Shown here: one piece after another, positions 10,384 through 30,929 of the stretch
How the letters are laid out: each line of letters begins with the position of its first letter
How positions within the stretch are numbered: the stretch's first letter is position 1
Assembly: GCA_963822405.1 (NCBI GenBank)
Contig: CAWGHH010000001.1
Span: 293,373 to 357,372 of the forward strand
From: Candidatus Uhrbacteria bacterium
GTDB taxonomy: Bacteria > Patescibacteriota > Patescibacteriia > UBA9934
Reading direction: 5' to 3'
Length of the DNA: 64,000 nt
Program-made: the position numbers and the translations under genes
Notes under the pieces: generated by a model
Seen by the model: only the letters and a program-made list of their open reading frames with translations
What the model was told of the DNA's origin: nothing
Database searches by the model: none

Positions 10384-12810
10384 ATGAACATTCTCGCTTC
10401 GTACAACTGGATTAGAGAGTACCTCAACACGACTTTATCAGCCGACGAGTTCGCAAAAGAGCTGTCACTCAAATCCATGTCCGTTGAAAAAATCGACGCT
10501 CTTTGGGGTAAGTTTGAACACATGGTAGTCGGCGTCATTAAGGAAATCAAAGCGCATCCAAATGCGAATAAACTTCGTATTGCGGTAACCGACATTGGCG
10601 ACAAGACCGTCGAGATCGTCTGCGGAGGATCGAATCTAGAAGTCGGCCAGCGCGTATTTGTCGCACTTCCTGGTGCGAAAGTTAAGTGGCACGGCGAAGG
10701 TGAACTGGTCACGCTCGCTGAAGTAGAAATTCGCGGTGTCAAAAGCATTGGCATGATTTGCGCGCCAGCCGAAGTCGGGTTCGACAAAATTCCTGCGGGC
10801 GATCATGAGATTTGGGACTTGTCGAAAATCACGGACGCAAAAGCTGGCACATTAATCGTTGACGCGCTCGAACTCCAGGACACGATTTTTGACATCGAGG
10901 TCACAACAAACCGCCCAGACTGCATGAGCATTATGGGTCTTGCAAGTGAAGGCGCTGCAGCTGTAGACGGTCATTTCGGTTTCGCTCCTCCCCCTCCACG
11001 CAGTGGAGGGGGTAAGGGGGGAGGACAAACCATTAGCGTGTCGATCGAGTCAAAGAAGTGTTCGCGCTACATGGCGGCCGTAGTTAAGAACGTCAAAGTC
11101 GGTCCATCACCTTGGTGGCTCCAAAAGAAGTTGCTTCTCGCCGGTCATCGTCCAATTAACAACATTGTCGACATCACTAATTTGGTTTTACACGAACTTG
11201 GCCAACCCCTGCATGCATTCGACGCGTCGAAAATTCGCGGTAATCAAATTATTGTTCGTGATGCAAAGAAGGGCGAGAAGATGAAAGCTCTGGACAACAA
11301 AGAATACACGCTCTCAAAGTCTAATTTGGTAATTGCTGACGCCGAAGGGCCAATGGCTGTTGCTGGCGTAATGGGCGGGGAAGTGAGTTCGACAACTAAC
11401 GAAACAACCACAGTCGTCTTTGAAGCAGCGACATTTGATGCCGTATCGGTTCGTCGTACGGCTCGTGATCTGAACTTGTATTCTGACTCGCAACTTGTTT
11501 TTGAAAAAGGTTTATCTACCCAGGCTGTACCAATTGCCATGGCGCGAGCGCTTGAGCTGGTCGAGCAACTAGCCGGGGGAGTTGTCGAGGGTTTGACTGA
11601 TGTTCAACCGAAGGCTTATAAGCCGCTTGTTTTCAAGACCTCGACCAAGAAAATCCGTTCTAGAATTGGCGTTGATGTTTCTGATGAGCAAATTCAAAAG
11701 ATTCTAACAAAGCTCGGCTTCATGCTTGAGGTCAAGGGCTCGACCATCACGGCAACGATTCCTTTCTGGCGCGATCATGACATTGAATCGGAGGTCGACC
11801 TGACCGAAGAAGTCGCTCGCATGTACGGCTATCACAACATGCCGTCGATTCTTCCTGCCGTTACTCCGCCTCCAGCTGTCGACGATATTGCTGTAGTTTG
11901 GGAACGCAAACTTAAGCGCTTACTCGCCTCACTCGGTTACACTGAATTCTTCGGAACGTCGCTCATTGACGGTCGGGATCTTGAGCGTTTCGGTATCACG
12001 CCGCTCGACGCTGTCAAAATCTTGAACCCGCTGGCCGAGGACTTGGCCTACATGCGCCCGACGCTCATTCCGTCGATCTTACGTGACATCGAAAAGAATC
12101 AGGCAACTACCGGCTCGGCCAATATTTTCGAATTATCTCGTGTGCATCTCCCCGACACCCTACACGCTACCCCCTACGCCCTTCCTCTCGAACAGTATCG
12201 CTTAGCTATCGCCGACTATGGCTATGACAACTCCGAAGCCGCTTTTATGGGTCTCAAGGGCACGCTTGAACGACTCGGCAAAGAAACTGGCATTACTTTC
12301 TCTCTTACTCGCGTGAACGAGGCGCCACGTTTCCATCCTGGTCGGGCGGCTGATATTCACGCTGAACTAAACGGCGTTCGAACTCTCGCTGGCATGATGG
12401 GGGAGATTTCACCGGCCGTAGAAAGTGCTTTTGGTCTAGAGAAGCAAGTATTCTTGATCGATCTCAACCTTGAGGCACTTCTTCCGCACCTCAAAAAGTC
12501 TTTGCGCTACGAGCCTCTCACGTCTTTCCCCGTTTCTCGTCGCGATATCTCGTTTGTTGTTAATGAACGCATCGCCTTTGAGGACCTAACATCAGTAATT
12601 GGTGCCTCAACAACTTTACAACTCCACAACTCCATAACTCTCGTCGACATCTACCGCGGTGCCGGCGTAGACAATGGCAAAAAGTCTTTGACGCTATCCT
12701 TAACCTTCTCCGCGGCCGATAGAACCCTAACCAGCGATGAGGTCGAATCCGAAATTAAACGCATTACCACAGCTCTCGAGGGCAAATTCGGCGCAACCAT
12801 GCGTGGGTAG
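10384..12810 (+). CDS. pheT: phenylalanine--tRNA ligase beta subunit
   Basis: 808 aa. N-terminal tRNA-binding (OB) domain (EIVCGGSNLEVGQRVFVALPG). B3/B4 and B5 domains. FELSRVHLP motif. C-terminal FDX-like domain. Confidence 0.85.
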   Translation: MNILASYNWIREYLNTTLSADEFAKELSLKSMSVEKIDALWGKFEHMVVGVIKEIKAHPNANKLRIAVTDIGDKTVEIVCGGSNLEVGQRVFVALPGAKVKWHGEGELVTLAEVEIRGVKSIGMICAPAEVGFDKIPAGDHEIWDLSKITDAKAGTLIVDALELQDTIFDIEVTTNRPDCMSIMGLASEGAAAVDGHFGFAPPPPRSGGGKGGGQTISVSIESKKCSRYMAAVVKNVKVGPSPWWLQKKLLLAGHRPINNIVDITNLVLHELGQPLHAFDASKIRGNQIIVRDAKKGEKMKALDNKEYTLSKSNLVIADAEGPMAVAGVMGGEVSSTTNETTTVVFEAATFDAVSVRRTARDLNLYSDSQLVFEKGLSTQAVPIAMARALELVEQLAGGVVEGLTDVQPKAYKPLVFKTSTKKIRSRIGVDVSDEQIQKILTKLGFMLEVKGSTITATIPFWRDHDIESEVDLTEEVARMYGYHNMPSILPAVTPPPAVDDIAVVWERKLKRLLASLGYTEFFGTSLIDGRDLERFGITPLDAVKILNPLAEDLAYMRPTLIPSILRDIEKNQATTGSANIFELSRVHLPDTLHATPYALPLEQYRLAIADYGYDNSEAAFMGLKGTLERLGKETGITFSLTRVNEAPRFHPGRAADIHAELNGVRTLAGMMGEISPAVESAFGLEKQVFLIDLNLEALLPHLKKSLRYEPLTSFPVSRRDISFVVNERIAFEDLTSVIGASTTLQLHNSITLVDIYRGAGVDNGKKSLTLSLTFSAADRTLTSDEVESEIKRITTALEGKFGATMRG
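12152..12182. repeat. in-frame copy of the GT/CA-rich repeat inside pheT (CCGACACCCTACACGCTACCCCCTACGCC)
   Basis: Shares CGACACCCTAC and ACGCTACNCCCTA with the right-end repeats at 8812 and 12828. Encodes PDTLHATPYALP in PheT. Confidence 0.55.
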
Positions 12811-13193: not shown

Positions 13194-13910
13194 ATGTTGC
13201 TTTCGGTTGATGAGATCGCAATTAAGGAACGGGCGGACGCGCAAGCGCGAGAGATGAAGACTCGGATCGCGAAAGAAATGACGGATAAGACTATCTATTT
13301 ACCCGACGAATTTCCTGTTTCGGTTTTTATGGCCGGCTCTCCGGGTGCGGGGAAGACCGAGTCATCTCGAAACCTTATTGCGAGGTTGACTGGTGACGGT
13401 CGTGCGGTTCTGAGGATAGATACCGATGAGTTGCGTTCGTTGTTTTCGGAGTATAACGGCCATAACTCACATCTCTTCATGAGCGCAACTTCTTTTCTCG
13501 CAGACAAGATTCACGATCTTGCTTTGAAGAACGGACAGAGCTTTGTTTTTGACGGAACTCTTTCGAACATAAAACGCTCTCGCGAGAATATTGAGCGATC
13601 TCTATCGCGGATAAGGTTTGTCCAGATCGTGTATGTGTATCAAGATCCCTTATTGGCTTGGAGTTTTGTAAAGGCTCGCGAGGCAAAAGATGGGAGGGCT
13701 ATTCCAAAGAGTGATTTTATAGCGAAGTTCTTTGCCGCAAGAGAGAATGTAGATGCTTTAAAGAAGGAGTTTGGTGATAAAATCCGAGTAGATATGGTCG
13801 TGAAGAATATTGATGGTTCTGACTATAGTTACAGCGAAAATATCGACGTTGTTGACAGTCAGATTTTTGAAAAGTACACTAAAATTCAACTTGAAGGTTT
13901 GATTGACTAA
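13194..13910 (+). CDS. zeta-toxin family P-loop kinase
   Basis: 238 aa. Walker A FMAGSPGAGKTE. Conserved FVFDGTLSN (xxEGT/DGT motif of zeta/PezT UDP-GlcNAc kinases). Confidence 0.6.
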   Translation: MLLSVDEIAIKERADAQAREMKTRIAKEMTDKTIYLPDEFPVSVFMAGSPGAGKTESSRNLIARLTGDGRAVLRIDTDELRSLFSEYNGHNSHLFMSATSFLADKIHDLALKNGQSFVFDGTLSNIKRSRENIERSLSRIRFVQIVYVYQDPLLAWSFVKAREAKDGRAIPKSDFIAKFFAARENVDALKKEFGDKIRVDMVVKNIDGSDYSYSENIDVVDSQIFEKYTKIQLEGLID

Positions 13911-13915
13911 TTGCT

Positions 13916-14086
13916 ATGTCTACAGGAATTATTGCCGCTTTACGGTCTGGAGGCTCTGACCGCTCGAGCGCATTTTCAAAGTTTTTTCGCGAGGCATCTT
14001 CAACTGAAAAGAAGAAGGTTTTTCTGGATGTTGCAAAAAAAGCCAGTCAAGATCAGCGCGATGTCATGAAAGCACTTCGTCCATAG
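13916..14086 (+). CDS. small hypothetical ORF (56 aa) downstream of the zeta-toxin gene
   Basis: ATG at 13916 to TAG at 14084-14086 (MSTGIIAALRSGGSDRSS...VMKALRP). Below the ORF-track length cutoff. No recognisable motif. Confidence 0.2.
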   Translation: MSTGIIAALRSGGSDRSSAFSKFFREASSTEKKKVFLDVAKKASQDQRDVMKALRP

Positions 14087-14440
14087 AAATAAAAGGAGTC
14101 CCTGTCGGCAATGGCGGGGATTTTTGTTTTGTAAGGCTTATTACCGGAGCCGGTAAAAAGTATTCAGGATAGTTAGAGGTATTTTGCTGTAACAAAAAAA
14201 CCGATCAAATGATCGGGTGCTTTGTAGAAGTCGCGTCTCAAGAAGTCGTCCTCTTCAGCTTAGACCCGAGGAGCCCCCCGGGGAACACTGAAGCGCTTCA
14301 AGAGGTATTATTGCAACTTCGCCTCAAATATATCTCAAAATATCGGCTCCGTAAACTTACCCACAATGTACCTAATGAGCAATCTATATTACTTCATCGT
14401 CGGCAGGAACGAGAGTTGAGGAATATTCCGTTTACGCTAC

Positions 14441-14482
14441 TTGACTAGTGTAAACAAAAGTATATAATCTGTTTATACTAGC
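14441..14482 (+). promoter_or_regulatory. sigma70-like promoter (TTGACT-N16-TATAAT) with palindromic operator flanking the -10, upstream of the Fic gene
   Basis: TTGACT at 14441-14446 and TATAAT at 14463-14468. Inverted repeat TAGTGTAAACA (14446-14456) / TGTTTATACTA (14470-14480) brackets the -10. Confidence 0.45.
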
Positions 14483-14486
14483 TATT

Positions 14487-15650
14487 TTGCATAAACAAAA
14501 AAATTATATGCCAAAAAACATATTGGGTAATTTGAAGAAACATAAGAGCGGGTATCAATACCTTTCACTTTCGGCATTCCCGCCTGAGTTAAAGGAGGTG
14601 CTTTCTGGTGCATTATTAGAGAAGGCTGATTATGCACAATTTTGCTTGGGCAAGCTTTCCGGTATTACTCACCTTCTTCCGGATGTAGATTTTTTCATTT
14701 CTTCGTATATAACTAAAGACGCTACCTCTTCTTCGCAGATCGAGGGAACAAAAGCCACTATGGCCGACGCCTTTGAATATGCGGCAAATCCCAACGACGA
14801 TAATTCTGATGCCGATGATATTTCGCATTATATTTCCGCACTTCATTACGGTCTTAAGCGACTAGGCGGAGATAATTTCCCCTTCGCTTTGCGTTTTATC
14901 AAGGAGCTTCATAAAGAATTAATGAAGAATGCAAGGTCGACTCATTTTTCCGATCCAGGTGAGTTTCGCACGTCTCAAAACTGGATTGGTGGCACTACTC
15001 CAACCAATGCTAGTTTTGTGCCTCCTGCGCCGGAAGAACTCACTCGACCATTAAAAGATCTTGAGAGCTTCATACACGTCAGACACTTTCATCCGGTACT
15101 TCAAGCCGGCTTGCTTCATGCACAGTTCGAAACCATTCACCCATTTTTGGACGGTAACGGAAGAACGGGCCGGTTATTGATTACATTCTATTTGATTCAG
15201 CAAAGACTTCTTGAGAGACCGGTGCTGTTTTTGTCTTCTTACTTTAAGAAGCATCAGAAGCTCTACTATCAGAGGCTTTCCGGATACCACCATGGTGAAA
15301 TCGGTCCATGGCTTGATTTCTTTCTTGATGGAATTATCGAGACTGCAGAGCAGGCTATTTCGGTATCTATCGCCGTTACTGCCTTGAGAGATAAGGATTT
15401 AAAAACGGTAGCGACTCTCGGAAAATCAGTCTCTGAAGTTTCTTCGAATATTCTTCAGCGCTTATACCAGAATCCGATCGTGTCTACAGCGCTAATAGAA
15501 CAGTGGACCGGTTACACTAGACCAGGTGTTATCAAAATCATTGATAAGTTGATGAAAGTGGGAATTCTAGAACTTTATCGCAAGGGGGAGGGTACGAAAC
15601 CGTCTGTGTATATTCATCGTGAATATGTAAACTTGTTTGCTGAAAAGTAG
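14487..15650 (+). CDS. Fic family protein (AMPylase/phosphocholine-transferase fold) with C-terminal winged-helix domain
   Basis: 387 aa. Fic motif HPFLDGNGRTGRLLITFYL. The start may be the second ATG at 14508 (MPKNILG). Confidence 0.8.
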   Translation: MHKQKNYMPKNILGNLKKHKSGYQYLSLSAFPPELKEVLSGALLEKADYAQFCLGKLSGITHLLPDVDFFISSYITKDATSSSQIEGTKATMADAFEYAANPNDDNSDADDISHYISALHYGLKRLGGDNFPFALRFIKELHKELMKNARSTHFSDPGEFRTSQNWIGGTTPTNASFVPPAPEELTRPLKDLESFIHVRHFHPVLQAGLLHAQFETIHPFLDGNGRTGRLLITFYLIQQRLLERPVLFLSSYFKKHQKLYYQRLSGYHHGEIGPWLDFFLDGIIETAEQAISVSIAVTALRDKDLKTVATLGKSVSEVSSNILQRLYQNPIVSTALIEQWTGYTRPGVIKIIDKLMKVGILELYRKGEGTKPSVYIHREYVNLFAEK

Positions 15651-15710
15651 GAATGTGCAATTAGTGCACATTCTAAGCAAACAATCCGATCTTCCGACCG
15701 GATTTTTGTT

Positions 15711-16244
15711 TTAAGGTGAATTCCGAATTTTCGCCCTAATTTGTTTATGGTTTGGGATTGTTTGTTCAACCAGTTTCCAAAACCTCACCGAGTGATTCAT
15801 CTGCGCCAAATGACACAGTTCATGGACGACAATATAGTCCACTTGTTCCTGTGTCAGATGAACAATCCGATAATTAAAACTCAGCGTTCCCGTACTGGTA
15901 CAACTACCCCAACGAGTTTTCTGATTTCTGATAGATACTTTCTTCCAGGACAACTTATAGAATTTATTGAAATAGTCGAGTCTCGACTCCACAAGTTCAA
16001 GCGCCCTATCTTTTAGCCGACCATAATCAGCCCTCGTCCCGCCACGTAGTAGACTTGGCGGTCGAGCCTTGGCTTTGGCGACGTGTTCAACTATCCACGC
16101 CGACTTCTGTTCGACGAACTGATTGATCATCCATGCTGGCACGCGCTTGTGTGCGGTGACCGTACACGCCCCATCCGCGCCAATGCGAATACGTATCCCA
16201 CGCGAGCGGGGGTGGCGTTTTAGTGCGAACTCGACGGAGGGCAT
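15711..16244 (-). CDS. DUF45/YgjP-like HExxH metal-dependent hydrolase
   Basis: 177 aa. VVHELCHLAQMNHSVRFWKLV matches the DUF45 signature. Divergent from hsdM. Confidence 0.65.
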   Translation of the reverse strand: MPSVEFALKRHPRSRGIRIRIGADGACTVTAHKRVPAWMINQFVEQKSAWIVEHVAKAKARPPSLLRGGTRADYGRLKDRALELVESRLDYFNKFYKLSWKKVSIRNQKTRWGSCTSTGTLSFNYRIVHLTQEQVDYIVVHELCHLAQMNHSVRFWKLVEQTIPNHKQIRAKIRNSP

Positions 16245-16361
16245 AGCGTGGACATGGTATCAGTAAGGCGATTAAAATTGAACCTCGATTTCTTGCGTCA
16301 TATGTGGGAGAATGGCGTACAGTGCGGATATCCATTCGCGTAGCATATAAACAGTCCAGAT

Positions 16362-17921
16362 ATGACCAAAGAACAAGAACGTTCAGAGCTGCACCGTGCC
16401 ATTTGGCAAATTGCTAATGATCTTCGAGGAAGCGTGGATGGGTGGGATTTTAAGCAATATGTGCTTGGAATGCTTTTTTATCGGTTTATCAGCGAGAATT
16501 TAACGAATTACATTAATTCCGAGGAGCGTCGCACGGGAAAGAAGGATTTTGATTACGCCACACTTTCAGATAAGGAGGCTGAATTTGGTCGAGCCGATAC
16601 GGTGCAGGAGAAAGGTTTTTATATTCCGCCGAGGGATCTTTTTGTTAACGTTCGCAGTAAAGCTAGAAATAACCCCAATCTCAACGAATCACTGGTAAAT
16701 GTTTTTCGAGATATTGAGAGTTCCGCTAAGGGATTTGAAAGTGAAGACGATATTAAGGGATTATTTCAGGATCTCGACGTTAACTCAGCCAAGCTTGGTA
16801 ATACTGTAGAACAACGAAATCAAAAGCTTGTAAAGCTTCTTGAGGCTATTGGCGACCTTCGGCTTGGTAACTATTCGGACAATAGTATTGATGCTTTCGG
16901 CGACGCATATGAGTTCCTCATGACCATGTATGCATCGAGTGCAGGAAAGTCCGGGGGAGAGTTCTATACCCCGCAGGAAGTGAGCGAGCTTCTTGCCGAA
17001 ATTACCACTGTCGGCAAAAAAGAAGTAAATAAAGTGTATGACCCAGCGTGCGGATCTGGTTCTTTGCTTTTGAAGTTTGCCAAGGTGCTCGGAAAAGAAA
17101 ATGTTCGACAAGGTTTCTATGGTCAGGAGATTAATCTCACCACCTATAACCTCTGTCGTATCAACATGTTCTTGCACGACATTAACTACAATAATTTTGA
17201 CATTGCTCTTGGCGACACGTTGACCGATCCAAAGCATTGGGACGAAGAACCTTTTGACGCCATTGTTTCTAACCCGCCTTACTCAATTAACTGGGAAGGC
17301 GACGCTAATCCGCTCCTCATTAATGATCCTCGATTTGCGCCCGCCGGTGTACTCGCGCCAAAGAGTAAGGCTGATCTCGCGTTTACCATGCACATGCTTT
17401 CATGGCTTTCTACGAGTGGCACCGCTGCGATTGTTGAGTTCCCTGGTGTTCTCTATCGTGGTGGTGCAGAGCAGAAAATCAGAAAATATCTTGTAGACAA
17501 TAACTACGTTGATGCCGTTATTCAGCTTCCGCCTGATTTGTTCTTTGGTACTACTATTGCTACCTGTATTATCGTAATCAAGAAGAGCAAGAAAGATAAT
17601 AAAGTGCTATTTATTGATGCTTCAGCTGAATTTGCGAGAGGCGGGAACAAAAATAAGCTGTCAGATGTTAATCGAAAGAAAATATTGGACGCTTTCATTT
17701 CTCGTCAGGACGCTGAATATTTCGCAAAACTCGTCGACAACCAGGTAGTAACAGAAAACGATTACAACATCGCCGTATCAAGTTATGTGGTAGCGGAGGA
17801 TACACGGGAGGTCATCGATATCACAGAGCTCAATAAGAAAATTACCGGCATTGTTGCGCGCGAGAATGAGTTGCGCATTGCAATTGACGAGATTGTGGCG
17901 GATATTGAGGGAGTGAAATAG
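16362..17921 (+). CDS. hsdM: type I restriction-modification system DNA methyltransferase subunit
   Basis: 519 aa. N-terminal HsdM_N. Motif I DPACGSGSLL. Motif IV SNPPYS (N6-adenine MTase). Confidence 0.9.
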   Translation: MTKEQERSELHRAIWQIANDLRGSVDGWDFKQYVLGMLFYRFISENLTNYINSEERRTGKKDFDYATLSDKEAEFGRADTVQEKGFYIPPRDLFVNVRSKARNNPNLNESLVNVFRDIESSAKGFESEDDIKGLFQDLDVNSAKLGNTVEQRNQKLVKLLEAIGDLRLGNYSDNSIDAFGDAYEFLMTMYASSAGKSGGEFYTPQEVSELLAEITTVGKKEVNKVYDPACGSGSLLLKFAKVLGKENVRQGFYGQEINLTTYNLCRINMFLHDINYNNFDIALGDTLTDPKHWDEEPFDAIVSNPPYSINWEGDANPLLINDPRFAPAGVLAPKSKADLAFTMHMLSWLSTSGTAAIVEFPGVLYRGGAEQKIRKYLVDNNYVDAVIQLPPDLFFGTTIATCIIVIKKSKKDNKVLFIDASAEFARGGNKNKLSDVNRKKILDAFISRQDAEYFAKLVDNQVVTENDYNIAVSSYVVAEDTREVIDITELNKKITGIVARENELRIAIDEIVADIEGVK

Positions 17922-17924
17922 CCT

Positions 17925-18419
17925 ATGGAAGATCAACCAAACAATGAAATCGTTATCTATACCGGGGACGGCGGTCAACCCGTTATTCAGGTGCGTATTG
18001 TGGGGGAGACAGTCTGGCTAACTCAGGCGCAGCTGGCTGAGCTTTTCGGCACAACCAAGCAGAATATTAGCCTTCACATACAAAATATTTTTGAGGAGGG
18101 CGAGCTGGCTCCCCGAGCAACTGTCAAGGAATACTTGATAGTTCAAACAGAGGGAAATAGAGAGGTTTCCCGCCAAATAGATCATTACAATCTCGACCTC
18201 ATTATATCCGTTGGATATCGAATAAAATCCCAAATTGCGACACATTTTAGACAATGGGCCACGGCGCGGCTTCGGGAATATATTGTCAAAGGATTTACGA
18301 TGGATGACGAGCGTTTGGAAAACACTGGTGGCCAGTTGCGCAGATTCCTATATAAGTATAACTTCGAGCTAATCACCCATTTTTTTCAATGTTTTCCACG
18401 CCTTCTTCGTTGTGGATAA
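17925..18419 (+). CDS. RhuM-family virulence-protein N-terminal fragment (truncated paralog of the 29947-30912 RhuM-Doc protein)
   Basis: 164 aa. DLIISVGYRIKSQIATHFRQWATARLREYIVKGFTMDDERL aligns with AIISVGYRVNSVTATKFRQWATKTLRQHITKGYTINPKVI at 29947+. Lacks the C-terminal half. Confidence 0.5.
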   Translation: MEDQPNNEIVIYTGDGGQPVIQVRIVGETVWLTQAQLAELFGTTKQNISLHIQNIFEEGELAPRATVKEYLIVQTEGNREVSRQIDHYNLDLIISVGYRIKSQIATHFRQWATARLREYIVKGFTMDDERLENTGGQLRRFLYKYNFELITHFFQCFPRLLRCG

Positions 18420-18443
18420 CCTAAGCCGGGTATAATTATAGAT

Positions 18444-19787
18444 ATGGCTCTCGACTGGCAACAGTTTGGATTAAAGAGAAACCCCTTCGATACACTCCCT
18501 TTAGTTGAGGGAGGAGATTTACCTATCGAGAAGGCCTTCGTCGGCAGAATGGATGAAAGAGATATGATTGATTCGTTATTCGAACAGGAAACGCACTTGT
18601 GTCTAATTGTCGCTGGCGAGGTGGGGGTTGGAAAGACTAGCTTGGTGAATTTCCAAAAATTCATTTGGAAATATAATAAATCAAAATTGCTATTCTCTTC
18701 GAGACGCGAAATTGAAGCTAGCAAGTACTTGTTAGATAAGAGAAACTTTTTACTTGAGATCATCGGTTCGGTACTTCGAGAGCTCCAATTGTTAGACCTA
18801 AATCTTTTGAAGGACCCCCTTCTCCAAAAAATAAAAACTGTTGTCGAAGTCAGTCAAAGCATAGCTATTTCTGGGGGCGCAAGCGCATTCGGATTTGGTC
18901 TGGATGCCAGCCACTCAAAAGAATTCACAGCACCTGTGGAACTGACCGTTTCTACACTTGAAGGATATTTACGGGATCTGGTAGGTTTTATAAAAGAGAC
19001 ACGGATAGGTGAATATAAGTATTCTGGACTCATCGTGCACGTTAATAATTTTGATGTTGTACTGAAGTCGGATGAGGGTGGCGTGAGAGAGTTTTTTGAC
19101 GAAATACGAGATATCTTACAGACCCCCGACGTGTTTTTCATATTTATTGGCCCATCAAACTTTTATGAAAAAGTGCTTGTACCTCTGCAGCGTGTGAGAG
19201 GCATTTTTTATCATCTTCCGCTCATAATTAAACCTATGAGCAAAACTGATCTTCGCACAGCGCTTGACGATCGAATGGAATTGCTCAAATCAGAGAACGT
19301 GTCAGTTTATGTAAAACCTTTTGAAGAGAAGCTGGTCTTTGAACTTTATGATTTATACGAGGGCGATGTTCGTTCTATCTTGAACGCACTTGTTTCCATC
19401 CTTCACGAATATAGCGACCGCCTCGCGAAGCCTCTTACAGTTAAGGAAGGCTTGCTGCTTTTGTGCCGTGAATTATGGAGAACGATTGAAAAGAACGCTT
19501 CGCCTACCGATGAACAAAAACAGATTCTACGGTTCATAGCGAATCAAAAAAATCCCGTCTCGAATAAAGAGATCGCTGATGCTCTCGGCAAGCAAGAAAG
19601 CAATATGTCAGCATATTATTTGAAGCCGTTAAAAGACGCCGGAATTATTGAGCTGAAAGAGCAGGTCGGCACTCGCAAGCTCTGGGGAATCTCCCAGCGA
19701 TATAGTATTCTTTCGAGATTTAGTGAGCTGCAGGATGGGGCTGTGACAGATTCGTCGAAGGATGTAGCACAGCTGCGCTTAATATAG
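18444..19787 (+). CDS. ORC/Cdc6-like AAA+ ATPase with C-terminal winged-helix domain
   Basis: 447 aa. FVGRMDERDMI (arch-ATPase FVGRxxE). Walker A AGEVGVGKTSL. Walker B-like LIVHVNNFD. Sensor FIFIGPSNF. C-terminal wHTH (ILRFIANQKNPVSNKEIADALG...). Confidence 0.55.
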   Translation: MALDWQQFGLKRNPFDTLPLVEGGDLPIEKAFVGRMDERDMIDSLFEQETHLCLIVAGEVGVGKTSLVNFQKFIWKYNKSKLLFSSRREIEASKYLLDKRNFLLEIIGSVLRELQLLDLNLLKDPLLQKIKTVVEVSQSIAISGGASAFGFGLDASHSKEFTAPVELTVSTLEGYLRDLVGFIKETRIGEYKYSGLIVHVNNFDVVLKSDEGGVREFFDEIRDILQTPDVFFIFIGPSNFYEKVLVPLQRVRGIFYHLPLIIKPMSKTDLRTALDDRMELLKSENVSVYVKPFEEKLVFELYDLYEGDVRSILNALVSILHEYSDRLAKPLTVKEGLLLLCRELWRTIEKNASPTDEQKQILRFIANQKNPVSNKEIADALGKQESNMSAYYLKPLKDAGIIELKEQVGTRKLWGISQRYSILSRFSELQDGAVTDSSKDVAQLRLI

Positions 19788-19916
19788 AATTTTAATTAAG
19801 ACAGACATTGTGCCTAGCCATCAAAATAGAATCGAAAAATTGATTGTCACCAAATACAATTAACCCCGCGCCACGATTGACGAGACCACGGTGGACATTG
19901 GGATAAACTACATAAT

Positions 19917-20474
19917 ATGTTTGAAAATATTTCGACTTGGTTTGTTGCGTTGCCGATTGGCGCTTGTTTAGGGTGGGTAGCCGATAGATTGCTTGGTCCA
20001 ACTGCGGATGCATTTGGTGCAGGATTACTTAATGTTTTTTCACGATGGTGGAATAAAAAAAGCGAGGCGATTACCGACTATCATAAACTCGAAGACTTGG
20101 TGCGTAAAAATCATATGTCTAATGGACATGGTCGATTCAATGAGCAAAAAACATACATGCACGATCGAGAAATAAATTTAACGTTACTAAAATACGGTTC
20201 ATTTATTCGTCGAGCTATAAAAGAAGCATGGATTGAGAGTGCTACAATAAATAACTATGATGAGAGTGATATATTTTTTGCGGGGATGAATTTGCTTTTC
20301 CCGCAACTTGGCAAGAGTGACATATCAACCATTTATGAAAAGTTTAAGGATAACAACCAGGCATCCTTGCGGTGGTGGCTTGAGCAGATGGAAGAACGAA
20401 AGCCGAAATTTCTGTCACTCGATGTTTTAAAATATTTGCGAACAGAACAAGAGGAACGGAACAAAATAATATGA
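19917..20474 (+). CDS. hypothetical protein with N-terminal TM helix
   Basis: 185 aa. WFVALPIGACLGWVADRLL hydrophobic segment. Very AT-rich. 4-bp overlap with the downstream nuclease gene. Confidence 0.35.
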   Translation: MFENISTWFVALPIGACLGWVADRLLGPTADAFGAGLLNVFSRWWNKKSEAITDYHKLEDLVRKNHMSNGHGRFNEQKTYMHDREINLTLLKYGSFIRRAIKEAWIESATINNYDESDIFFAGMNLLFPQLGKSDISTIYEKFKDNNQASLRWWLEQMEERKPKFLSLDVLKYLRTEQEERNKII

Positions 20475-21532
20475 ATCAAGCAATAACTACAAAATCGATA
20501 GGAAGAGGAATTGCTGAAGTAGGTGCAATTGTTTTGGAGGAAAAACCTTTATCAAAACTTATATTTAAGCCACAAATTCATAATCGTGGAATAAGAGGCT
20601 TTATAATTAGACAAAAAAGAAGTAATAAAAGTGAAGAATGGAAAGATGAACAATCAATAAAACTGAAAGATCTCGCTGATGTTGATGGAGTAAATTTTGA
20701 AATACCAACAGAAGGAATATTGAACTTATTTATTGGAATAAAGAAACTCGCTGTTATTTTAAGAGAAAATGGTGTTGAATACGGAGAAAATCATTATGAA
20801 ATTGTAGATCCTAATTCTGTTATTATAACAGATGAAAATAAAGCTCAGTTTATAAAGAAAATACTTGAAGCGGGATATGAAGAAGAAACTTGGGAAAGCA
20901 TTGTTGAATTAAATCCTGATTTAGCAACAAAACTTTCCTATGCAAGAATTCAAATCGAGAGGAAAAAAGTTTTAGATGAACTTCAAGAAAGATTTAAAAA
21001 TGATTATTCTGAAACAAAAGGAGATGATTCGTGGCAAAATTGGATTTCAAAAAATAATTGGCTTTTTGGTGTGAATTACAGACAACCGATAGAAAAAGCA
21101 AAAATAAATTTATTTGGAATAATGCCAGATTTCTTATATCCGACCATTGATGGTTTTGTTGATGTTTTAGAAATAAAACTTCCTAAAGATGAGGTTTTAA
21201 TGGAAGATGTAGGCCATAAAGGATCATGGAAATGGACACCTGAAACAAATAGTGCAATCGGACAGGTGGTAAATTATTTAACAGAAATTGATAGATTAAG
21301 ATTTGAGAACGAAAATACAATTCGCAACGAAACAACTGATAAAGTTTTGTTTCTAAAACCACGCGCCTTTATTCTTATTGGAAATAGCCAAGAGTGGGAT
21401 GATCAAAAAAAAGAAGCGTTAAGAAAATTAAATTATTATTTACATAATATCGAAGTGCTTACTTATAAAGATTTATTAGATAGAGGAAATCAATTTTTAA
21501 ATAGTCGTAATTTATCCATTAATAAATTATGA
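20471..21532 (+). CDS. PD-(D/E)xK nuclease-fold protein, possibly DUF4263/Shedu(SduA)-like
   Basis: 353 aa. NWLFGVNYRQ...GIMPDFLYPTIDGFVDVLEIKLPKD gives PD...D...E-I-K core motifs. Very AT-rich. 4-bp overlaps with both neighbours (ATGA at both junctions). Confidence 0.45.
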   Translation: MNQAITTKSIGRGIAEVGAIVLEEKPLSKLIFKPQIHNRGIRGFIIRQKRSNKSEEWKDEQSIKLKDLADVDGVNFEIPTEGILNLFIGIKKLAVILRENGVEYGENHYEIVDPNSVIITDENKAQFIKKILEAGYEEETWESIVELNPDLATKLSYARIQIERKKVLDELQERFKNDYSETKGDDSWQNWISKNNWLFGVNYRQPIEKAKINLFGIMPDFLYPTIDGFVDVLEIKLPKDEVLMEDVGHKGSWKWTPETNSAIGQVVNYLTEIDRLRFENENTIRNETTDKVLFLKPRAFILIGNSQEWDDQKKEALRKLNYYLHNIEVLTYKDLLDRGNQFLNSRNLSINKL

Positions 21533-22776
21533 CAAACAATCGATCAAAAATCGAAAAATTAATTTCTGAACTCTGCCCGAACGGGGTGGAGTTTAAGGAG
21601 TTGGGTGAACTTGGTGATTTTTATGGAGGACTTACTGGAAAAAGTAAAGAGGATTTTAGCAATGGCAACGCAAAATTTATCACTTACATGAATATTTTTT
21701 CTAATATTGCCGTTGATACTGATGTAAATATTTTTGTAAAAATGGAGCAGGAGGAAAAGCAAAATAGAATTCAATACGGCGACGTTTTGTTTACAGGTTC
21801 GTCAGAAACACCGGACGAGTGTGGAATGTCCTCTGTTTTAACAAAGAAAATTGATGAGCCGCTGTATCTAAACAGTTTCTGTTTCGGCTTTCGCCCGAAT
21901 GACAAGAATTTGTTGTTGCCCGAGTTTTCTAAATATTTGTTTAGAGATGAACAGATGAGAAAACAGATTGCGAAAACTGCCAGTGGAGTGACGAGATTTA
22001 ATGTCTCAAAAAAGCGTTTTGCAAAAATGACAATCCCTCTCCCACCCCTTGCAATCCAAAAAGAAATCGTCCGTGTGCTAGACTCTTTCACGGAGCTTGA
22101 GGCGGAGCTTGAGGCGGAGCTTGAGGCGGAGCTTGAGGCAAGGAAGAGTCAATATGAACACTATCGTACTGAGCTTTTGACGTTTGGGGTTGGGGTTGAG
22201 CTTAAGGAGCTGGGTGATGTAGCGGGTTATTCCAAGCTTCGAATAGGTGCCACCGAATTAAATTGCGATAATTTTGTAGGTGTAGATAATTTACTTACCA
22301 ACAAACAGGGAAAGACAGTTTCAAGTTATGTACCAACAGCTGGTAAACTGACTCGTTTCGAAACAGGTGACATTCTGCTCGGAAATATTCGTCCATACCT
22401 GAAGAAGATTTGGCTGGCAACGAATGAGGGAGGGGCGAGTGGCGATGTTTTGGTTGTTAGTATCAAGGACGAGAAAAGAAAATACTTGCTATCGGAGTTT
22501 TTGTATTACATGCTTTCTTCGGATAATTTTTTCAATTACGACATGCAGCATGCGAAAGGTGCAAAAATGCCACGTGGAAATAAGGATGCTATTCTACAGT
22601 TTAAAGTCCCAATTCCGTCGATGGCGGAGCAAGAACGTATCGTGTCGATCCTCGACAAATTCGATGCTTTGGTGAACGATATCTCTGTTGGTCTGCCGGC
22701 GGAGATTAGGGCCAGAAGACAGCAGTATGAGTATTATCGGAATAAGCTATTGAGCTTTAGGGAGAAAACTAAATAG
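21529..22776 (+). CDS. hsdS: type I restriction-modification system specificity subunit (two TRDs)
   Basis: 415 aa. Central conserved LPPLAIQKEIVRVLDSFTELEA...RKSQYEHYRTELL and C-terminal IPSMAEQERIVSILDKFDALVNDISVGLPAEIRARRQQYEYYRNKLLSF, the standard HsdS coiled-coil conserved regions. Confidence 0.85.
   Translation: MTNNRSKIEKLISELCPNGVEFKELGELGDFYGGLTGKSKEDFSNGNAKFITYMNIFSNIAVDTDVNIFVKMEQEEKQNRIQYGDVLFTGSSETPDECGMSSVLTKKIDEPLYLNSFCFGFRPNDKNLLLPEFSKYLFRDEQMRKQIAKTASGVTRFNVSKKRFAKMTIPLPPLAIQKEIVRVLDSFTELEAELEAELEAELEARKSQYEHYRTELLTFGVGVELKELGDVAGYSKLRIGATELNCDNFVGVDNLLTNKQGKTVSSYVPTAGKLTRFETGDILLGNIRPYLKKIWLATNEGGASGDVLVVSIKDEKRKYLLSEFLYYMLSSDNFFNYDMQHAKGAKMPRGNKDAILQFKVPIPSMAEQERIVSILDKFDALVNDISVGLPAEIRARRQQYEYYRNKLLSFREKTK
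22093..22140. repeat. perfect 12-bp tandem repeat x4 (GAGCTTGAGGCG; last copy ends GCA) in the central spacer of hsdS, encoding (ELEA)4
   Basis: Read directly: gagcttgaggcg gagcttgaggcg gagcttgaggcg gagcttgaggca. Confidence 0.85.
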
Positions 22777-22845
22777 AATACCCATAGGACGTATTTTGAC
22801 CGAAACACGTTCTACGGGGTACGAAAGAAAGCTTAGATAGCAATT

Positions 22846-25800
22846 ATGAAAATGAAAAAATATAACCTTGTCGCTGAGGGCGCGCAGAGTACTGTTGTTT
22901 CGGAATATACGCCGGATAATAAGAGGGCTTCGCATTACCAGAGTGAGGCGGAGCTTGAGCGGGCGTTTGTGAAGCAGCTTGAGGGGCAGGCGTATGAATA
23001 TGTCACCATTACTTCGGAGGAGGATCTCGTTATTAATTTGAGAAAACAGCTCGAGAAGCTAAATGATTTTTCGTTTACAGATGCGGAGTGGGATAGATTT
23101 TTTAAGAACGAGATTGCCAATCCCAATCAGAGTATCGAGGAGAAAACGAAGACCATTCAGGAGGATCATGTGAAGATACTTACACGTGATGACGGAGCGG
23201 TGAAGAATATTTATCTTCTGAAGAAAGATAACATTCACAACAATTCACTCCAGGTCATCAATCAATACGCTACTGACGAGGGGCAGCGAAGTAATCGGTA
23301 TGATGTAACGGTCTTGGTGAACGGGCTACCGATGGTGCATATTGAGCTGAAGCGTCGTGGAGTGGCCATTCAGGAGGCGTTCAATCAGATTAATCGGTAT
23401 CACCGTGAAAGTTTTTGGGCCGCAGCTGGACTTTTTGAATATGTGCAGCTGTTTGTTATTTCTAACGGTACGCACACAAAGTATTACAGTAACACTACTC
23501 GCGCTCAGCATGTAAAAGATAGTGTCGGGGGTGCGGCAAAGAAAGGAAAAAGGACAAGTAATAGTTTTGAATTTACCAGCTGGTGGGCAGACGCCACTAA
23601 TCGTCCCATCACCGATTTAATGGACTTCGCCAAAACCTTTTTTGCAAAGCACGCGTTGCTGAATATCTTGACTCGATATTGTGTCTTCACGAGTGACCAC
23701 TTGTTGCTAGTAATGCGTCCATACCAAATTGTCGCGACCGAACGCATTCTTAGCCGCATTGAAATCAGCACGAATTATAGGAAGCTGGGAACCGTTGAGG
23801 CTGGTGGCTATGTTTGGCACACCACCGGATCAGGAAAGACTTTAACAAGCTTTAAGACGGCTCAGTTGGCAAGCAAACTGCCTCATGTAGACAAAGTGCT
23901 TTTCGTGGTAGACCGCAAAGATTTGGATTACCAAACCATGCAGGAGTATGACAAGTTTGAGAAGGGGGCGGCGAATAGCAACGCGAGCACCGCGATTCTT
24001 AAGCGTCAGATGGAAGATGCGAATTCGCGCATCATCGTGACCACTATTCAGAAGCTTGATCGCTTCATCGGCCGAAATTCTAAACACGAAATCTTTGATG
24101 GCCACGTCGTGATTATTTTTGACGAATGTCACCGTTCACAGTTTGGTGATATGCATACCGCAATCACGAAGGCATTTAAGAATTACCATCTCTTCGGTTT
24201 TACTGGCACGCCAATCTTTGCGGCCAACGCTTCTGCCGGTGGTCATCCTGATTTGAGGACAACAGAACAGGCCTTTGGCGAGAAACTTCATACCTACACC
24301 ATCGTCGATGCTATTGCGGATAAAAATGTTTTGCCATTTAAGGTTGATTACGTTTCTACGGTTCGTGAAGCTGAGAACATTGAGGATAAAGCAGTGAACG
24401 ATATTGACCGTGAGGCCGTTTTGTCCGCACCGGAACGATTATCGAATATTGTCGAGTATATTCGGGAACATTTCGACCAGAAAACAAAGCGAAACAGCTT
24501 CTATCAGTTGAAAGACAGGCGATTGGCTGGGTTTAATTCGATCTTTGCTGTTTCTTCTATTGAAATGGCCAAGAGATACTACGCTGAGTTCAAGAAGCAA
24601 CTCGCTGGTGTCCCAGGTGACAAGCAATTAAAAATCGCAACTATCTTTAGTTTTGGAGTGAATGATGAAGATGCTGATGGGATGATCGATGAAAATTCGG
24701 AAGACACGAGCGGTCTAGATGTGAGCTCACGTGATTTCTTGGAGAATGCGATCAAAGATTACAATGTCATGTTCGGAGCCTCGTACGACACCTCTTCTGA
24801 TAAATTTCAGAACTACTATAAGGACGTGAGTCAACGCGTGAAAAATCGAGAGATAGATGTACTCATCGTGGTGAACATGTTCTTGACCGGTTTTGATGCG
24901 ACAACGTTGAACACTTTGTGGGTTGATAAGAATCTTCGATTGCATGGATTGGTTCAGGCGTTTTCGCGCACGAACCGCATTCTTAATAGCGTTAAGACGT
25001 TCGGAAACATCGTTTGTTTCCGTAACCTAGAGAAGGCGACGAATGAGGCGATTGCGTTATTTGGTGACAAAGAAGCTAGCGGTATCGTTCTTCTTAAGGC
25101 GTACGCTGATTATTACAATGGCTATAAGAATGACGGCACAGAGGTGCGCGGTTACGAAAGTCTGGTAAAGGAATTGCAGGAAAAGTTCCCCGTTGGCGAG
25201 AGAATTCTTGGTGAACAGGATCGGAAGGACTTTATTAGGTTATATGGTGCGATTTTGCGTGTTCGGAATATCCTCACCACATTCGATGAATTTGTGGGTA
25301 ATGAGATTCTGACCGAGCGCGACGTGCAGGACTATCACAGTGCATATATTGATCTATACAATGAATTCCGCAAGCAAGTGGAGGGGGAGAAGGAGAACGT
25401 GAATGATGATGTAGTTTTTGAAATGGAGTTGATTAAACAAATCGAGATCAATATTGATTATGTGATCGGACTCATTAAAAAGTATCACGAAGGTCACACG
25501 AAGGATCGAGAGCTACTCGTTGATATTAACAAGGCGATTGATTCTAGTGTTGAATTACGTAATAAAAAAGATCTTATCAATCAATTCATCACCAGACTTG
25601 ATGTTCATTCTGTCGTTGAAGATGACTGGCAGAAGTTTGTGGATGAGAAGAAAGTTGAGGAGCTGGATCAGATTATCTCCAATGAAGGGCTCGACCACGA
25701 CGCAACGTATAAATTTGTGCAAAATGCGTTCCGTAACGGGGATATCGTCGGTACCGGAACCGCAATCGCCAAAATAATACCGCCGGTAACACGTTTTTCT

Positions 25801-25902
25801 CCGGGCGGTGAACGTACAAAGAAGCGCGAGAGCGTATTGGGGAAATTAACACATTTCTTTGAGCGATTCTTTGATATTTCGGGTGGTAAGTTTTCAGATT
25901 GA
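22846..25902 (+). CDS. hsdR: type I restriction enzyme R subunit (helicase/endonuclease)
   Basis: 1018 aa. N-terminal PD-(D/E)xK region (VLVNGLPMVHIELK). Walker A HTTGSGKTLTS. DEAH-like VIIFDECHRSQ. Helicase C domain. Confidence 0.9.
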   Translation: MKMKKYNLVAEGAQSTVVSEYTPDNKRASHYQSEAELERAFVKQLEGQAYEYVTITSEEDLVINLRKQLEKLNDFSFTDAEWDRFFKNEIANPNQSIEEKTKTIQEDHVKILTRDDGAVKNIYLLKKDNIHNNSLQVINQYATDEGQRSNRYDVTVLVNGLPMVHIELKRRGVAIQEAFNQINRYHRESFWAAAGLFEYVQLFVISNGTHTKYYSNTTRAQHVKDSVGGAAKKGKRTSNSFEFTSWWADATNRPITDLMDFAKTFFAKHALLNILTRYCVFTSDHLLLVMRPYQIVATERILSRIEISTNYRKLGTVEAGGYVWHTTGSGKTLTSFKTAQLASKLPHVDKVLFVVDRKDLDYQTMQEYDKFEKGAANSNASTAILKRQMEDANSRIIVTTIQKLDRFIGRNSKHEIFDGHVVIIFDECHRSQFGDMHTAITKAFKNYHLFGFTGTPIFAANASAGGHPDLRTTEQAFGEKLHTYTIVDAIADKNVLPFKVDYVSTVREAENIEDKAVNDIDREAVLSAPERLSNIVEYIREHFDQKTKRNSFYQLKDRRLAGFNSIFAVSSIEMAKRYYAEFKKQLAGVPGDKQLKIATIFSFGVNDEDADGMIDENSEDTSGLDVSSRDFLENAIKDYNVMFGASYDTSSDKFQNYYKDVSQRVKNREIDVLIVVNMFLTGFDATTLNTLWVDKNLRLHGLVQAFSRTNRILNSVKTFGNIVCFRNLEKATNEAIALFGDKEASGIVLLKAYADYYNGYKNDGTEVRGYESLVKELQEKFPVGERILGEQDRKDFIRLYGAILRVRNILTTFDEFVGNEILTERDVQDYHSAYIDLYNEFRKQVEGEKENVNDDVVFEMELIKQIEINIDYVIGLIKKYHEGHTKDRELLVDINKAIDSSVELRNKKDLINQFITRLDVHSVVEDDWQKFVDEKKVEELDQIISNEGLDHDATYKFVQNAFRNGDIVGTGTAIAKIIPPVTRFSPGGERTKKRESVLGKLTHFFERFFDISGGKFSD

Positions 25903-25995
25903 TCGCGGGATAGATTAGTATCGGCTTCACAGTCTAGTTAGCAGTCATTAGTGATGAGTGCTAGTATGAATATGTAATTCAATAATTATGTATTT

Positions 25996-26532
25996 ATGAC
26001 AAATTACGAACCAATCACAATTATTATATATTTATGTCAGGTTGTATTAGGATTGATTACAATTTTGTTGATGCTATATGGTTTGCGCAAGATTCAAAAG
26101 GTTTTTCCGATGATTGAAACTGTATATACGGCAAAAACACGATCTAATGGTCAGAATGGTCCGATTGTTTCTGATGCCCTTGGAAGTATTATGGTTACAT
26201 TGGCTACTCAAATTGCCGGTGAAGATTTGAATAATGGAGTAATGAGAATAATGACAAAGGGAACGTACTCGCCTCCTATCGTTTCCAGTGGCCTGGTGAA
26301 AAGTGGTCCCGGTTATCTCTTAGGTTTTGTGATAAACTCAGTAATCTCAGGCGCTACATTGAGAATCCTGGATGGTGCCGATAATTCCGGTGCAGCTATT
26401 TTTGATACGATGACTTTTACAGCAATGTTTAATGGGCCCAAAGTAATTTCGTTGCCTGCGGCGGTAGAATTTAATAATGGATGTTATTTTTGTGTCGATG
26501 GTACAATTTCAATTACTCCAATATTGAGTTAG
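25996..26532 (+). CDS. hypothetical membrane-anchored protein (island cargo)
   Basis: 178 aa. N-terminal TM (IIIYLCQVVLGLITILLMLYGL). AT-rich. No recognisable motif. Confidence 0.3.
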   Translation: MTNYEPITIIIYLCQVVLGLITILLMLYGLRKIQKVFPMIETVYTAKTRSNGQNGPIVSDALGSIMVTLATQIAGEDLNNGVMRIMTKGTYSPPIVSSGLVKSGPGYLLGFVINSVISGATLRILDGADNSGAAIFDTMTFTAMFNGPKVISLPAAVEFNNGCYFCVDGTISITPILS

Positions 26533-26634
26533 TCTAAAATTTATTTTGTAAGAGTTGTATAACCCAAAAAACAAAACTCCTTTTATATTAAAATCAATAA
26601 AGTGAAAAGAGAGGAAATGGTTGCTACATAACAT

Positions 26635-27228
26635 ATGCCCGAAATAATCTACATCCTCATCAATGAAGCCATGCCTGGTTATGTGAAGATAGGCATGACA
26701 ACTAATCTAGAACAGCGAATTCGTTCGCTTGATACAACTGGTGTTCCGTTGCCGTTTGAATGTTTTTACGCGTGTACGGTGAAGGATTGTACGTTTGTTG
26801 AGCGTCAGTTGCATGATGCATTTTTGGATCATCGAGTGCGCTCTAGCAGAGAATTCTTTGAGATATCACCCGAACGTGCCGTCGCAGCCCTGAAGCTTGC
26901 CGAAATAGAGAACATTACGCCAAAGAAGGACTTTGTGGAGACGCAGGAGGATCAGCAGGCGCTTAACGAAGCTAGAACAAGACGAGCGGTGTTTAATTTT
27001 GGCTTGGTAAATATTCCGGTTGGCGCAGAGCTAACGTTTAGTCGGGATGATAATCAGAAAGTAACCGTTATAGACAATAGGTCAGTCATGTTTAACGGAG
27101 AAATCACTAGTTTGTCAGCTTCGGCGCAAGAGTTACTTGGGTACCCGTACCAAGTACAGGGAACGGTTTATTGGTTGTATGAAGGGGAAACACTCGATGA
27201 AAGAAGGAAAAGATTTGAAAGCGGGTAG
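26635..27228 (+). CDS. T5orf172 (GIY-YIG-like) domain protein
   Basis: 197 aa. IYILINEAMPGYVKIGMTTNLEQRIRSL...ERQLHDAF...REFFEIS matches the T5orf172 pattern. Confidence 0.6.
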   Translation: MPEIIYILINEAMPGYVKIGMTTNLEQRIRSLDTTGVPLPFECFYACTVKDCTFVERQLHDAFLDHRVRSSREFFEISPERAVAALKLAEIENITPKKDFVETQEDQQALNEARTRRAVFNFGLVNIPVGAELTFSRDDNQKVTVIDNRSVMFNGEITSLSASAQELLGYPYQVQGTVYWLYEGETLDERRKRFESG

Positions 27229-27492
27229 ATGATCGCTAAACTTATTGAGGCTCGAGATGAAGATGCTTGGCGGATTAAGCTTGCTGATCTCACGGATAAC
27301 TTGAGGCAGTGTCACGGCCTATCGCTCGATAACCGACGATTCATGATTGAAGTGAAAGCCACGCTGATGCTTCGCCTAGCTAAGACTATGCCATTTAGTC
27401 GAATGATCACGGAGGAACCGCCATTTGTTCAGCCGAGCATCCTTGCTCTCCAGACAGAGATGGAAAAACAACGGGCGGGGTTGGGTCAATAA
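27229..27492 (+). CDS. small hypothetical protein
   Basis: 87-aa ORF overlapping the upstream stop codon (ATGA). No motif. Confidence 0.25.
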   Translation: MIAKLIEARDEDAWRIKLADLTDNLRQCHGLSLDNRRFMIEVKATLMLRLAKTMPFSRMITEEPPFVQPSILALQTEMEKQRAGLGQ

Positions 27493-27514
27493 ATTGATTT
27501 TATTCACGCTTATA

Positions 27515-27650
27515 GCCCCAAAACCGTGAAAAAGTAGTAAAAAATGGCATTCTGTCACGGTTATGGCTCGTAAATCGTGACAAAAGTGCATTTTATTGCA
27601 TTCTGTCACGGTTATGTTGCCAAAACCGTGACAGTAGTGTATAATGCTGA
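27515..27650 (+). promoter_or_regulatory. promoter (TTGCCA-N17-TATAAT) with multiple CGTGACA-core operator-like repeats upstream of the second Fic gene
   Basis: 19-mer GCATTCTGTCACGGTTATG occurs exactly twice (27547-27565 and 27599-27617). Inverted partner AAAACCGTGACAG (27622-27634) sits in the spacer. A further half-site AAATCGTGACAAAAG lies at 27573-27587. TATAAT at 27640-27645. Confidence 0.45.
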
Positions 27651-27653
27651 TAT

Positions 27654-28538: not shown

Positions 28539-28551
28539 TGTTGGTTAGCCT

Positions 28552-29916: not shown

Positions 29917-29946
29917 GTTTTGAGTTTTGGTATATTGATCCTTGAT

Positions 29947-30912: not shown

Positions 30913-30929
30913 CCGCTATAGAGTTCGAT

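Follow-up and report, generated by a model that had tools for sequence, protein, structure and literature searches.

In the 64,000-nt stretch of a Candidatus Uhrbacteria genome analyzed here (the window, in whose positions the locus coordinates are given), the genes hsdM and hsdS of an EcoR124-type type I restriction-modification (R-M) operon are separated by four inserted genes. We consider it likely, with a probability of roughly 80%, that this gap is a variable cargo slot holding four independent passengers, and that its functional core is sduA, encoding a Type 1A Shedu nuclease. The other passengers, a RhuM-family open reading frame (ORF), an ORC/Cdc6-like ATPase and a gene for a 185-aa protein, are separate cargo and not Shedu partners. 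An original prediction, made from the sequence alone, had noticed a defence-type insertion inside a type I R-M operon, and this is indeed what the locus contains.

All seven ORFs from hsdM to hsdR lie on the plus strand, and the ORF map reproduced their predicted coordinates. Immediately downstream of hsdM are the RhuM-family ORF (17925-18419, 164 aa; Pfam Virulence_RhuM, 2.1e-30), which, as its earlier label of a fragment implied, is limited to the N-terminal portion of the family, and the AAA+ ATPase with a C-terminal winged helix (18444-19787, 447 aa). After a plus-strand spacer of 129 bp (19788-19916) follow the gene of the 185-aa all-alpha protein (19917-20474) and sduA (20471-21532, 353 aa). 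Overlaps of 4 bp with the sequence ATGA were confirmed between the 185-aa ORF and sduA (20471-20474) and between sduA and hsdS (21529-21532).

Identification of the nuclease

The product of sduA had been described as a PD-(D/E)xK nuclease translationally coupled to hsdS, within a combination of genes that could be assigned to no named system. The first part is supported by the ATGA overlap and by the invariant residues D220, E234 and K236; the second is not, as profile searches with Shedu/DUF4263 models identify the protein as Shedu SduA. It matched the PADLOC SduA model PDLC00390 end to end (1.7e-95), and both Pfam domains exceeded their cutoffs of 27 bits, SduA_C with 74.3 bits (1.7e-20) and SduA_N with 37.4 bits (3e-9). 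With a profile of 25 homologues, residues 18-346 aligned with residues 19-378 of Bacillus cereus SduA (8TI8; E 6e-19); the same profile aligned with Escherichia coli SduA (8PS4) across the nuclease domain only.

Among the 25 homologues, D220, D231, E234, K236 and Q265 are invariant. The first four of these form the PD...D...EIK motif of the original prediction, and D220, E234, K236 and Q265 correspond to D249, E264, K266 and Q295 of B. cereus motifs II-IV. A sensor domain like that of B. cereus SduA (sPC4/Whirly-like) was also recognised in the N-terminal region at the sequence level, with SduA_N above the cutoff and the 8TI8 alignment running from residue 18, and a basic residue is found at the position of B. 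cereus R29 (K29 here, R in most relatives). Because of the PADLOC and Pfam matches, the alignment with 8TI8 and the invariant motif residues, the nuclease is classified from its sequence as Type 1A under the Shedu classification of Gu et al. (PMC10441436).

Genomic context of the Shedu clade

To place sduA in context, we used a survey of 85 SduA loci, 80 of them from a metagenome scan; surveyed loci are referred to by L numbers, and in gene orders M, S, R and Sdu stand for hsdM, hsdS, hsdR and sduA. One of the three hsd genes directly adjoins sduA in 52 of the 85 loci. De-replication at 90% and the requirement of at least 2.5 kb of flank on both sides left 25 loci. An hsd gene lies within two genes of sduA in 16 of these (64%), always on the same strand, and is directly adjacent in 15; nine have no hsd neighbour. 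The gaps at the sduA-to-hsd junctions are mostly from -4 to +20 nt, the ATGA overlap with hsd genes being the commonest junction, and therefore tight coupling is a trait of the clade. Close relatives (79-83% identity) reside in operons with the orders M-S-Sdu-R, M-S-Sdu-x-R and (M)-Sdu-S-...-R; the first order is seen at L057 and the second at L061. The GC content of sduA is below that of hsdM/hsdR in 43 of 46 loci.

That Shedu genes can lie within R-M systems is already known in outline. Gu et al. (PMC10441436) counted 602 R-M-embedded genes, those in type I systems included, among 5,499 Shedu genes, and type I operons frequently host embedded defence genes (Payne et al., 10.1101/2024.01.29.577857). 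In the clade considered here, embedding is the majority state (~64%).

Some points weigh against the favoured explanation of the locus. Motif I does not align cleanly: the column of B. cereus E204 contains D185, which is variable, although an invariant glutamate, E181, is situated four residues upstream and may substitute for E204. The activity and autonomy of this SduA are predicted from homology, and the trigger of Type 1A Shedu has not yet been identified in the literature (PMC10441436). The surveyed loci come from pattern-based scans, short contigs included. Moreover, the proportion of 64% in type I operons, compared with ~11% of all Shedu in any R-M system, could reflect functional dependence beyond co-inheritance.

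Such dependence might take the form known from PrrC, where the complex of HsdM and HsdS, possibly with HsdR, would hold SduA inactive; loss of the type I enzyme's function to an anti-restriction protein of a phage would then free the nuclease. The clade occupies the same hsdM|hsdS and hsdS|hsdR slots as PrrC, and the direct adjacency at 15 de-replicated loci and the prevalence of ATGA overlaps also fit a guard of this kind, for which the PrrC precedent is summarised by Payne et al. (10.1101/2024.01.29.577857). However, the characterised Shedu of B. cereus (Type 1A) and E. coli each give protection from one gene alone (PMC10441436) and are kept in check by their own N-terminal domain, and the nine well-flanked relatives that have no hsd neighbour also argue against it. 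None of the four inserted proteins matches the PADLOC PrrC model, and no PrrC/RloC model of PADLOC or Pfam was hit at all, so the earlier parallel with PrrC/RloC modules finds no counterpart in the proteins themselves. We consider a PrrC-like guard rather unlikely.

The overlap of sduA with the upstream gene would suit another arrangement, in which the 185-aa protein binds the N-terminal domain of SduA as the partner in a two-component Shedu; in KELA/KELB, a published Shedu made up of two genes, a small partner is encoded upstream (PMC12577705). Still, none of the 85 SduA loci holds a homologue of the 185-aa gene, so there is no conserved adjacent small partner, and at every other context recovered (L048-L056, L145) the 185-aa homologues are without SduA. 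In addition, KELA is a 12.6-kDa double-stranded DNA (dsDNA) binder, and no similarity between it and the 185-aa protein was detected. A KELShedu-like pair is thus highly improbable.

The operon and its variable slot

Pfam matches bear out the designation of hsdM, hsdS and hsdR as type I genes. HsdM (16362-17921, 519 aa) matched N6_Mtase (4e-114) and HsdM_N (2.2e-20), as well as PADLOC MTase_I (1.2e-132). HsdS (21529-22776, 415 aa) matched Methylase_S in two stretches (1.9e-36). HsdR (22846-25902, 1018 aa), the restriction and motor subunit, has an EcoR124-type C-terminal domain (EcoR124_C, 5.3e-67; PADLOC REase_I, 1180 bits) and the further Pfam domains HSDR_N, SWI2_SNF2, ResIII and a T1R_D3-like one. 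HsdM, an HsdS with two target-recognition domains and an HsdR bearing EcoR124_C are encoded in a single operon, as expected of an EcoR124-like type I system. In a scan for promoters and terminators between 15.6 and 26.7 kb, the counts did not exceed those in shuffled sequence and no terminator-like signal above chance was seen inside the operon; hence no internal regulation can be claimed.

The inserted segment had been called markedly AT-rich. This applies to sduA, with a GC fraction of 0.292, the only clearly low value among the four inserted genes, and mildly to the 185-aa ORF (0.385). The RhuM ORF (0.448) and the ATPase gene (0.426), on the contrary, match hsdM (0.438) and hsdR (0.443); the value for hsdS is 0.414.

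Related operons carry different genes in the same slot. Two groups with HsdM 85% and HsdR 82% identical (aa) to those of the window have the orders HTH-M-small-S-R (L051-53) and M-340aa-small-S-R (L048-50), where HTH denotes a helix-turn-helix gene and small the 185-aa gene. L143 is arranged as M-ATPase-71aa-106aa-S, with HsdM 87% and the ATPase 80% identical (aa) and the RhuM ORF absent. At L063, the order is M-Sdu-S-R (~74% nt identity in hsdM and ~71% in hsdR), and at L059 it is (M)-Sdu-S-...-R (~72% nt identity in hsdR). A blastn alignment at L051 that runs beyond the stop of the small ORF into 'hsdS' is an AT-rich chance extension and not homology. We also considered whether the small ORF encodes an invariable core subunit in this lineage of type I systems; this was ruled out, as it is absent from L063 and L143.

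The spacer between the ATPase gene and the 185-aa gene carries a recombination scar, a remnant of an hsdS 5' end followed by a remnant of an hsdM 3' end. In frame 2 it reads VPSHQNRIEKLIVTKYN, a stop codon, and then ATIDETTVDIG. The former (~19807-19860) resembles the N-terminus of HsdS, MTNNRSKIEKLI, and the latter (~19876-19912) the C-terminus of HsdM, AIDEIVADIEG. The alignment score was attained by one of 5000 shuffles for the hsdM end and by none of 5000 for the hsdS end. Among 651 real segments of the same length, five attained the score for the hsdM end, one that for the hsdS end, and none both. The simplest reading of the sequence has an M-(RhuM')-ATPase-S' segment fused to an 'M-small-Sdu-S-R one via recombination through the conserved gene ends.

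The original prediction had regarded the insert as probably acquired as a cassette. This is contradicted by the cargo of the sister operons, by the co-occurrence counts, by the scar and by the differences in GC content. ATPase homologues, like those of the 185-aa gene, are found at none of the 85 SduA loci, and neither SduA nor 185-aa homologues are found at any of 42 ATPase loci; homologues do recur inside hsd operons, but the three genes never occur together outside the window. The earlier reading made these three genes a single integrated multi-gene system of defence without a name, hard-wired to hsdS, with the ATPase as its sensor and the small protein in the membrane; the single strand, the tight spacing and the 4-bp overlaps among the last two genes and hsdS might suggest as much. 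This reading is largely refuted and has very little chance of being right, for each gene stands without the others in sister operons, the spacer with its remnants parts the ATPase from the other two genes, and GC content differs between the blocks.

The boundaries of the cargo have in common a AAAATAATATGA-like junction containing a stop and a start codon together with an A-rich lead (window 20455-20476 and 21519-21535, L059 ~470-495, L063 ~4615-4630). These junctions could serve as microhomology for cargo exchange. Other passenger ORFs in type I slots encode proteins of 340 aa (L048 1159-2181), 197 aa (L061 8092-8685) and 260 aa (L145 2125-2907), and a pair of 71 and 106 aa (L143 2509-3037). 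None of them has a significant Pfam match, and we list them as guilt-by-embedding candidates.

The 185-aa protein

The 185-aa protein has no match in Pfam, NCBIfam, PHROGs or PADLOC, and no relative was found in a scan of viral contigs. It forms only four clusters at 90% identity among 5.8e9 proteins, and a profile search of 1.84e9 representatives yielded 52 relatives. At every context recovered, namely the window, L048-50, L051-53, L054-56 and L145 (where the relative is 37% identical), the gene is inside a type I operon, in the hsdM|hsdS or the hsdS|hsdR slot and often with 4-bp overlaps. In about a dozen of the 52 relatives, residues ~70-180 recur at the C-terminus of proteins of ~390-430 aa carrying Abi_C (HEPN), several of which carry AbiJ_NTD3 as well. 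The fold of the 185-aa protein is a generic helical bundle.

The first 35 residues of the protein form a strongly conserved stretch that is hydrophobic and rich in Gly. The earlier description as a small transmembrane protein is weak: the maximum Kyte-Doolittle mean over 19 residues of the helix is 1.43, below the usual transmembrane threshold of 1.6, and the sequence conservation of the helix (residues 6-25, with low pLDDT, the predicted local distance difference test) is unusual for a membrane anchor. The gene is a candidate embedded accessory or defence gene.

The ORC/Cdc6-like ATPase

The ATPase was correctly described as ORC-like, with FVGR, a Walker A motif of the form GxVGVGKTS and a C-terminal winged helix; the AAA+ initiator fold together with the winged helix is like that of Orc1/Cdc6. 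At the level of sequence, only Pfam AAA_16 was found, below its curated cutoff, and no Cdc6 or ORC model matched; a search of PDB sequences gave no significant match. PADLOC searches over 22 members of the family returned only matches at the level of the winged helix, to PDC-S27 and Csa3/CARF, and the ATPase was therefore assigned to no defence family.

The family has at least 270 members of ~450 aa with ~50% identity, and its named sources are all Patescibacteria, such as Peregrinibacteria, Moranbacteria and Yonathbacteria. The motifs FGLxxNP(Y/F)DT, FVGR, GxVGVGKTS, HVNNFD and GDxRS do not vary across the family. Copies of the gene mostly occur singly, in variable or housekeeping surroundings. 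For instance, the sample of the window (ERR12037365) also contains a paralogue with 49% identity, which stands alone beside pentose-phosphate pathway genes (L142 6099-7451).

The most recurrent neighbours of the ATPase are R-M genes: among 133 neighbours counted, the ResIII family leads with 6, followed by N6_Mtase and Eco57I with 3 each and N6_N4_Mtase with 2. The order hsdS-ATPase-hsdR is found at L002-5, a type ISP enzyme is upstream of the ATPase at L023, and the order mod-ATPase-res is found at L025 and L030; res is directly downstream of the ATPase at L011, L032 and L040 too. We regard the protein as an autonomous DNA-binding ATPase often riding in R-M operons.

At L030 (7706-14109) and L025 (2832-9509), the ATPase gene lies between a type III-like Mod methylase and a Res-like helicase-nuclease, with gaps of 127-171 bp. 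Mod at these loci is an N6_N4_Mtase of 700-724 aa, and the Res-like protein (~892 aa) has ResIII and an endonuclease domain. The mod-ATPase-res arrangement is a second kind of R-M operon hosting this family.

The RhuM ORF, the hsdS repeat and the surrounding island

The RhuM ORF covers only positions 1-73 of the 252 in the Pfam profile and is thus not a full-length RhuM; the C-terminal half was not found downstream of it. Residues 1-137 match PADLOC PDC-S05 (e-59), and residues 138-164 match nothing. Since PADLOC also holds short PDC-S05 models of 138-174 aa, the N-terminal-only form may be a genuine variant rather than debris. A fusion of this N-terminal module with Fic/DOC is encoded at 29920-30912.

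Within hsdS, a perfect tandem repeat of a 12-bp unit (CGGAGCTTGAGG; 4.1 copies, 100% matches, 22091-22139, plus strand) corresponds to (ELEA)4 in the protein's central conserved region. Its copy number varies between loci: four at L051, three at L048 and L063, and two at L059. The repeat resembles the TAEL repeat that sets spacer length in EcoR124I/II recognition sites, and by this likeness it could be a specificity-switching element.

The type I operon is part of a larger defence island (13194-31000) that starts just after pheT (10384-12810). Upstream of hsdM, the island encodes a zeta toxin (13194-13910), a Fic protein (14487-15650) and, on the minus strand, a YgjP-like metallopeptidase (15711-16244). 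Downstream of hsdR are a T5orf172/GIY-YIG-like gene (26635-27228), a second Fic gene (27654-28538), a Cas4/DUF2779 nuclease gene (28552-29916) and the RhuM_N-Fic/DOC fusion mentioned above. Between the zeta-toxin gene and the first Fic gene, an Rfam DUF3800-V RNA motif was detected on the minus strand (14226-14321; 55.4 bits, gathering score 37.4). Further elements on the minus strand, at 33058-33154 and 33273-33348, are an S-adenosylmethionine (SAM, S-box) riboswitch upstream of the ORF at 32070-33026 (minus strand) and an adjoining tRNA-like gene, to which ARAGORN assigned no anticodon.

Proposed mechanism and significance

The passengers would have been gathered by recombination between related operons, with the conserved 3' end of hsdM and 5' end of hsdS as the sites of exchange. 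Judged by its B. cereus homologue (PMC10441436), the nuclease would be a homotetramer in which the N-terminal sensor domain keeps the DUF4263 PD-(D/E)xK domain inactive. Gu et al. (PMC10441436) describe the N-terminal domain of Shedu as holding the nuclease inhibited before infection, with activation involving octamer formation. The proposed trigger is a nucleic-acid cue derived from the phage, upon which SduA would form the active assembly and cut dsDNA. The ATGA coupling to the neighbouring cistrons ties SduA synthesis to the R-M operon, and SduA would thus be a co-inherited second defence layer. Speculatively, it may act on DNA already cut, or not stopped, by the type I enzyme.

Because the 'unnamed' nuclease system is Shedu, a false lead is removed. 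What the locus offers instead is a clean natural example of the exchange of embedded defence cargo in type I operons, with a single operon lineage whose hsdM|hsdS slot is filled in five different ways and, in the window, a scar of gene-end remnants. It also gives two guilt-by-embedding leads, the rare 185-aa protein, so far found only in type I operons and having a domain in common with AbiJ-like proteins, and the widespread Patescibacterial ORC-like ATPase enriched beside restriction motor subunits. We tentatively suggest, as a possibility that is not the more probable one, that either or both of these families are undescribed accessory or defence components of R-M operons and, separately, that the Shedu clade could depend on the type I enzyme. 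If so, this clade might sense ends or stalled complexes made by the enzyme, or guard it in the manner of PrrC.

Comparison with known systems

Compared with B. cereus SduA (8TI8), the nuclease of the window is of the same length class and aligns over its full length, including the N-terminal sensor region, the linker and the DUF4263 nuclease. The match is at the profile level only, with low identity, and the phage-defence role of this clade is a predicted one. In contrast to the B. cereus gene, which stands alone, sduA in the window is built into a type I operon as a translationally coupled cistron. 

With PrrC/RloC in EcoprrI-type loci, the insertion shares the position between hsd genes, and a similar logic of a backup to restriction is conceivable. 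However, the inserted proteins are unrelated to PrrC/RloC and have neither an ABC-ATPase head nor an anticodon-nuclease domain. Moreover, PrrC targets tRNA, whereas Shedu targets DNA, and R-M dependence of SduA is hypothetical.

The C-terminal two-thirds of the 185-aa protein are a helical domain of ~110 residues shared with AbiJ-like HEPN proteins (AbiJ_NTD3 and Abi_C; E down to 2e-16). Unlike these, the 185-aa protein lacks the HEPN (Abi_C) and AbiJ N-terminal domains and has a conserved hydrophobic N-terminal helix. The ATPase differs from archaeal Orc1/Cdc6 initiators (1W5S, 1FNN, 2QBY), and also from BrxC and TnsC, in having no significant sequence membership and an unusual Walker B region (HVNNFD). 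Its family is bacterial (Patescibacteria) and mostly solitary, and recurs beside Res/HsdR and Mod genes.

Finally, the locus is similar to the published cases of R-M-embedded Shedu and of 'guilt-by-embedding' (PMC10441436; 10.1101/2024.01.29.577857) in that defence genes are nested among hsd genes and inherited together with them. It differs in that the window holds a stack of several passengers with a visible recombination scar.

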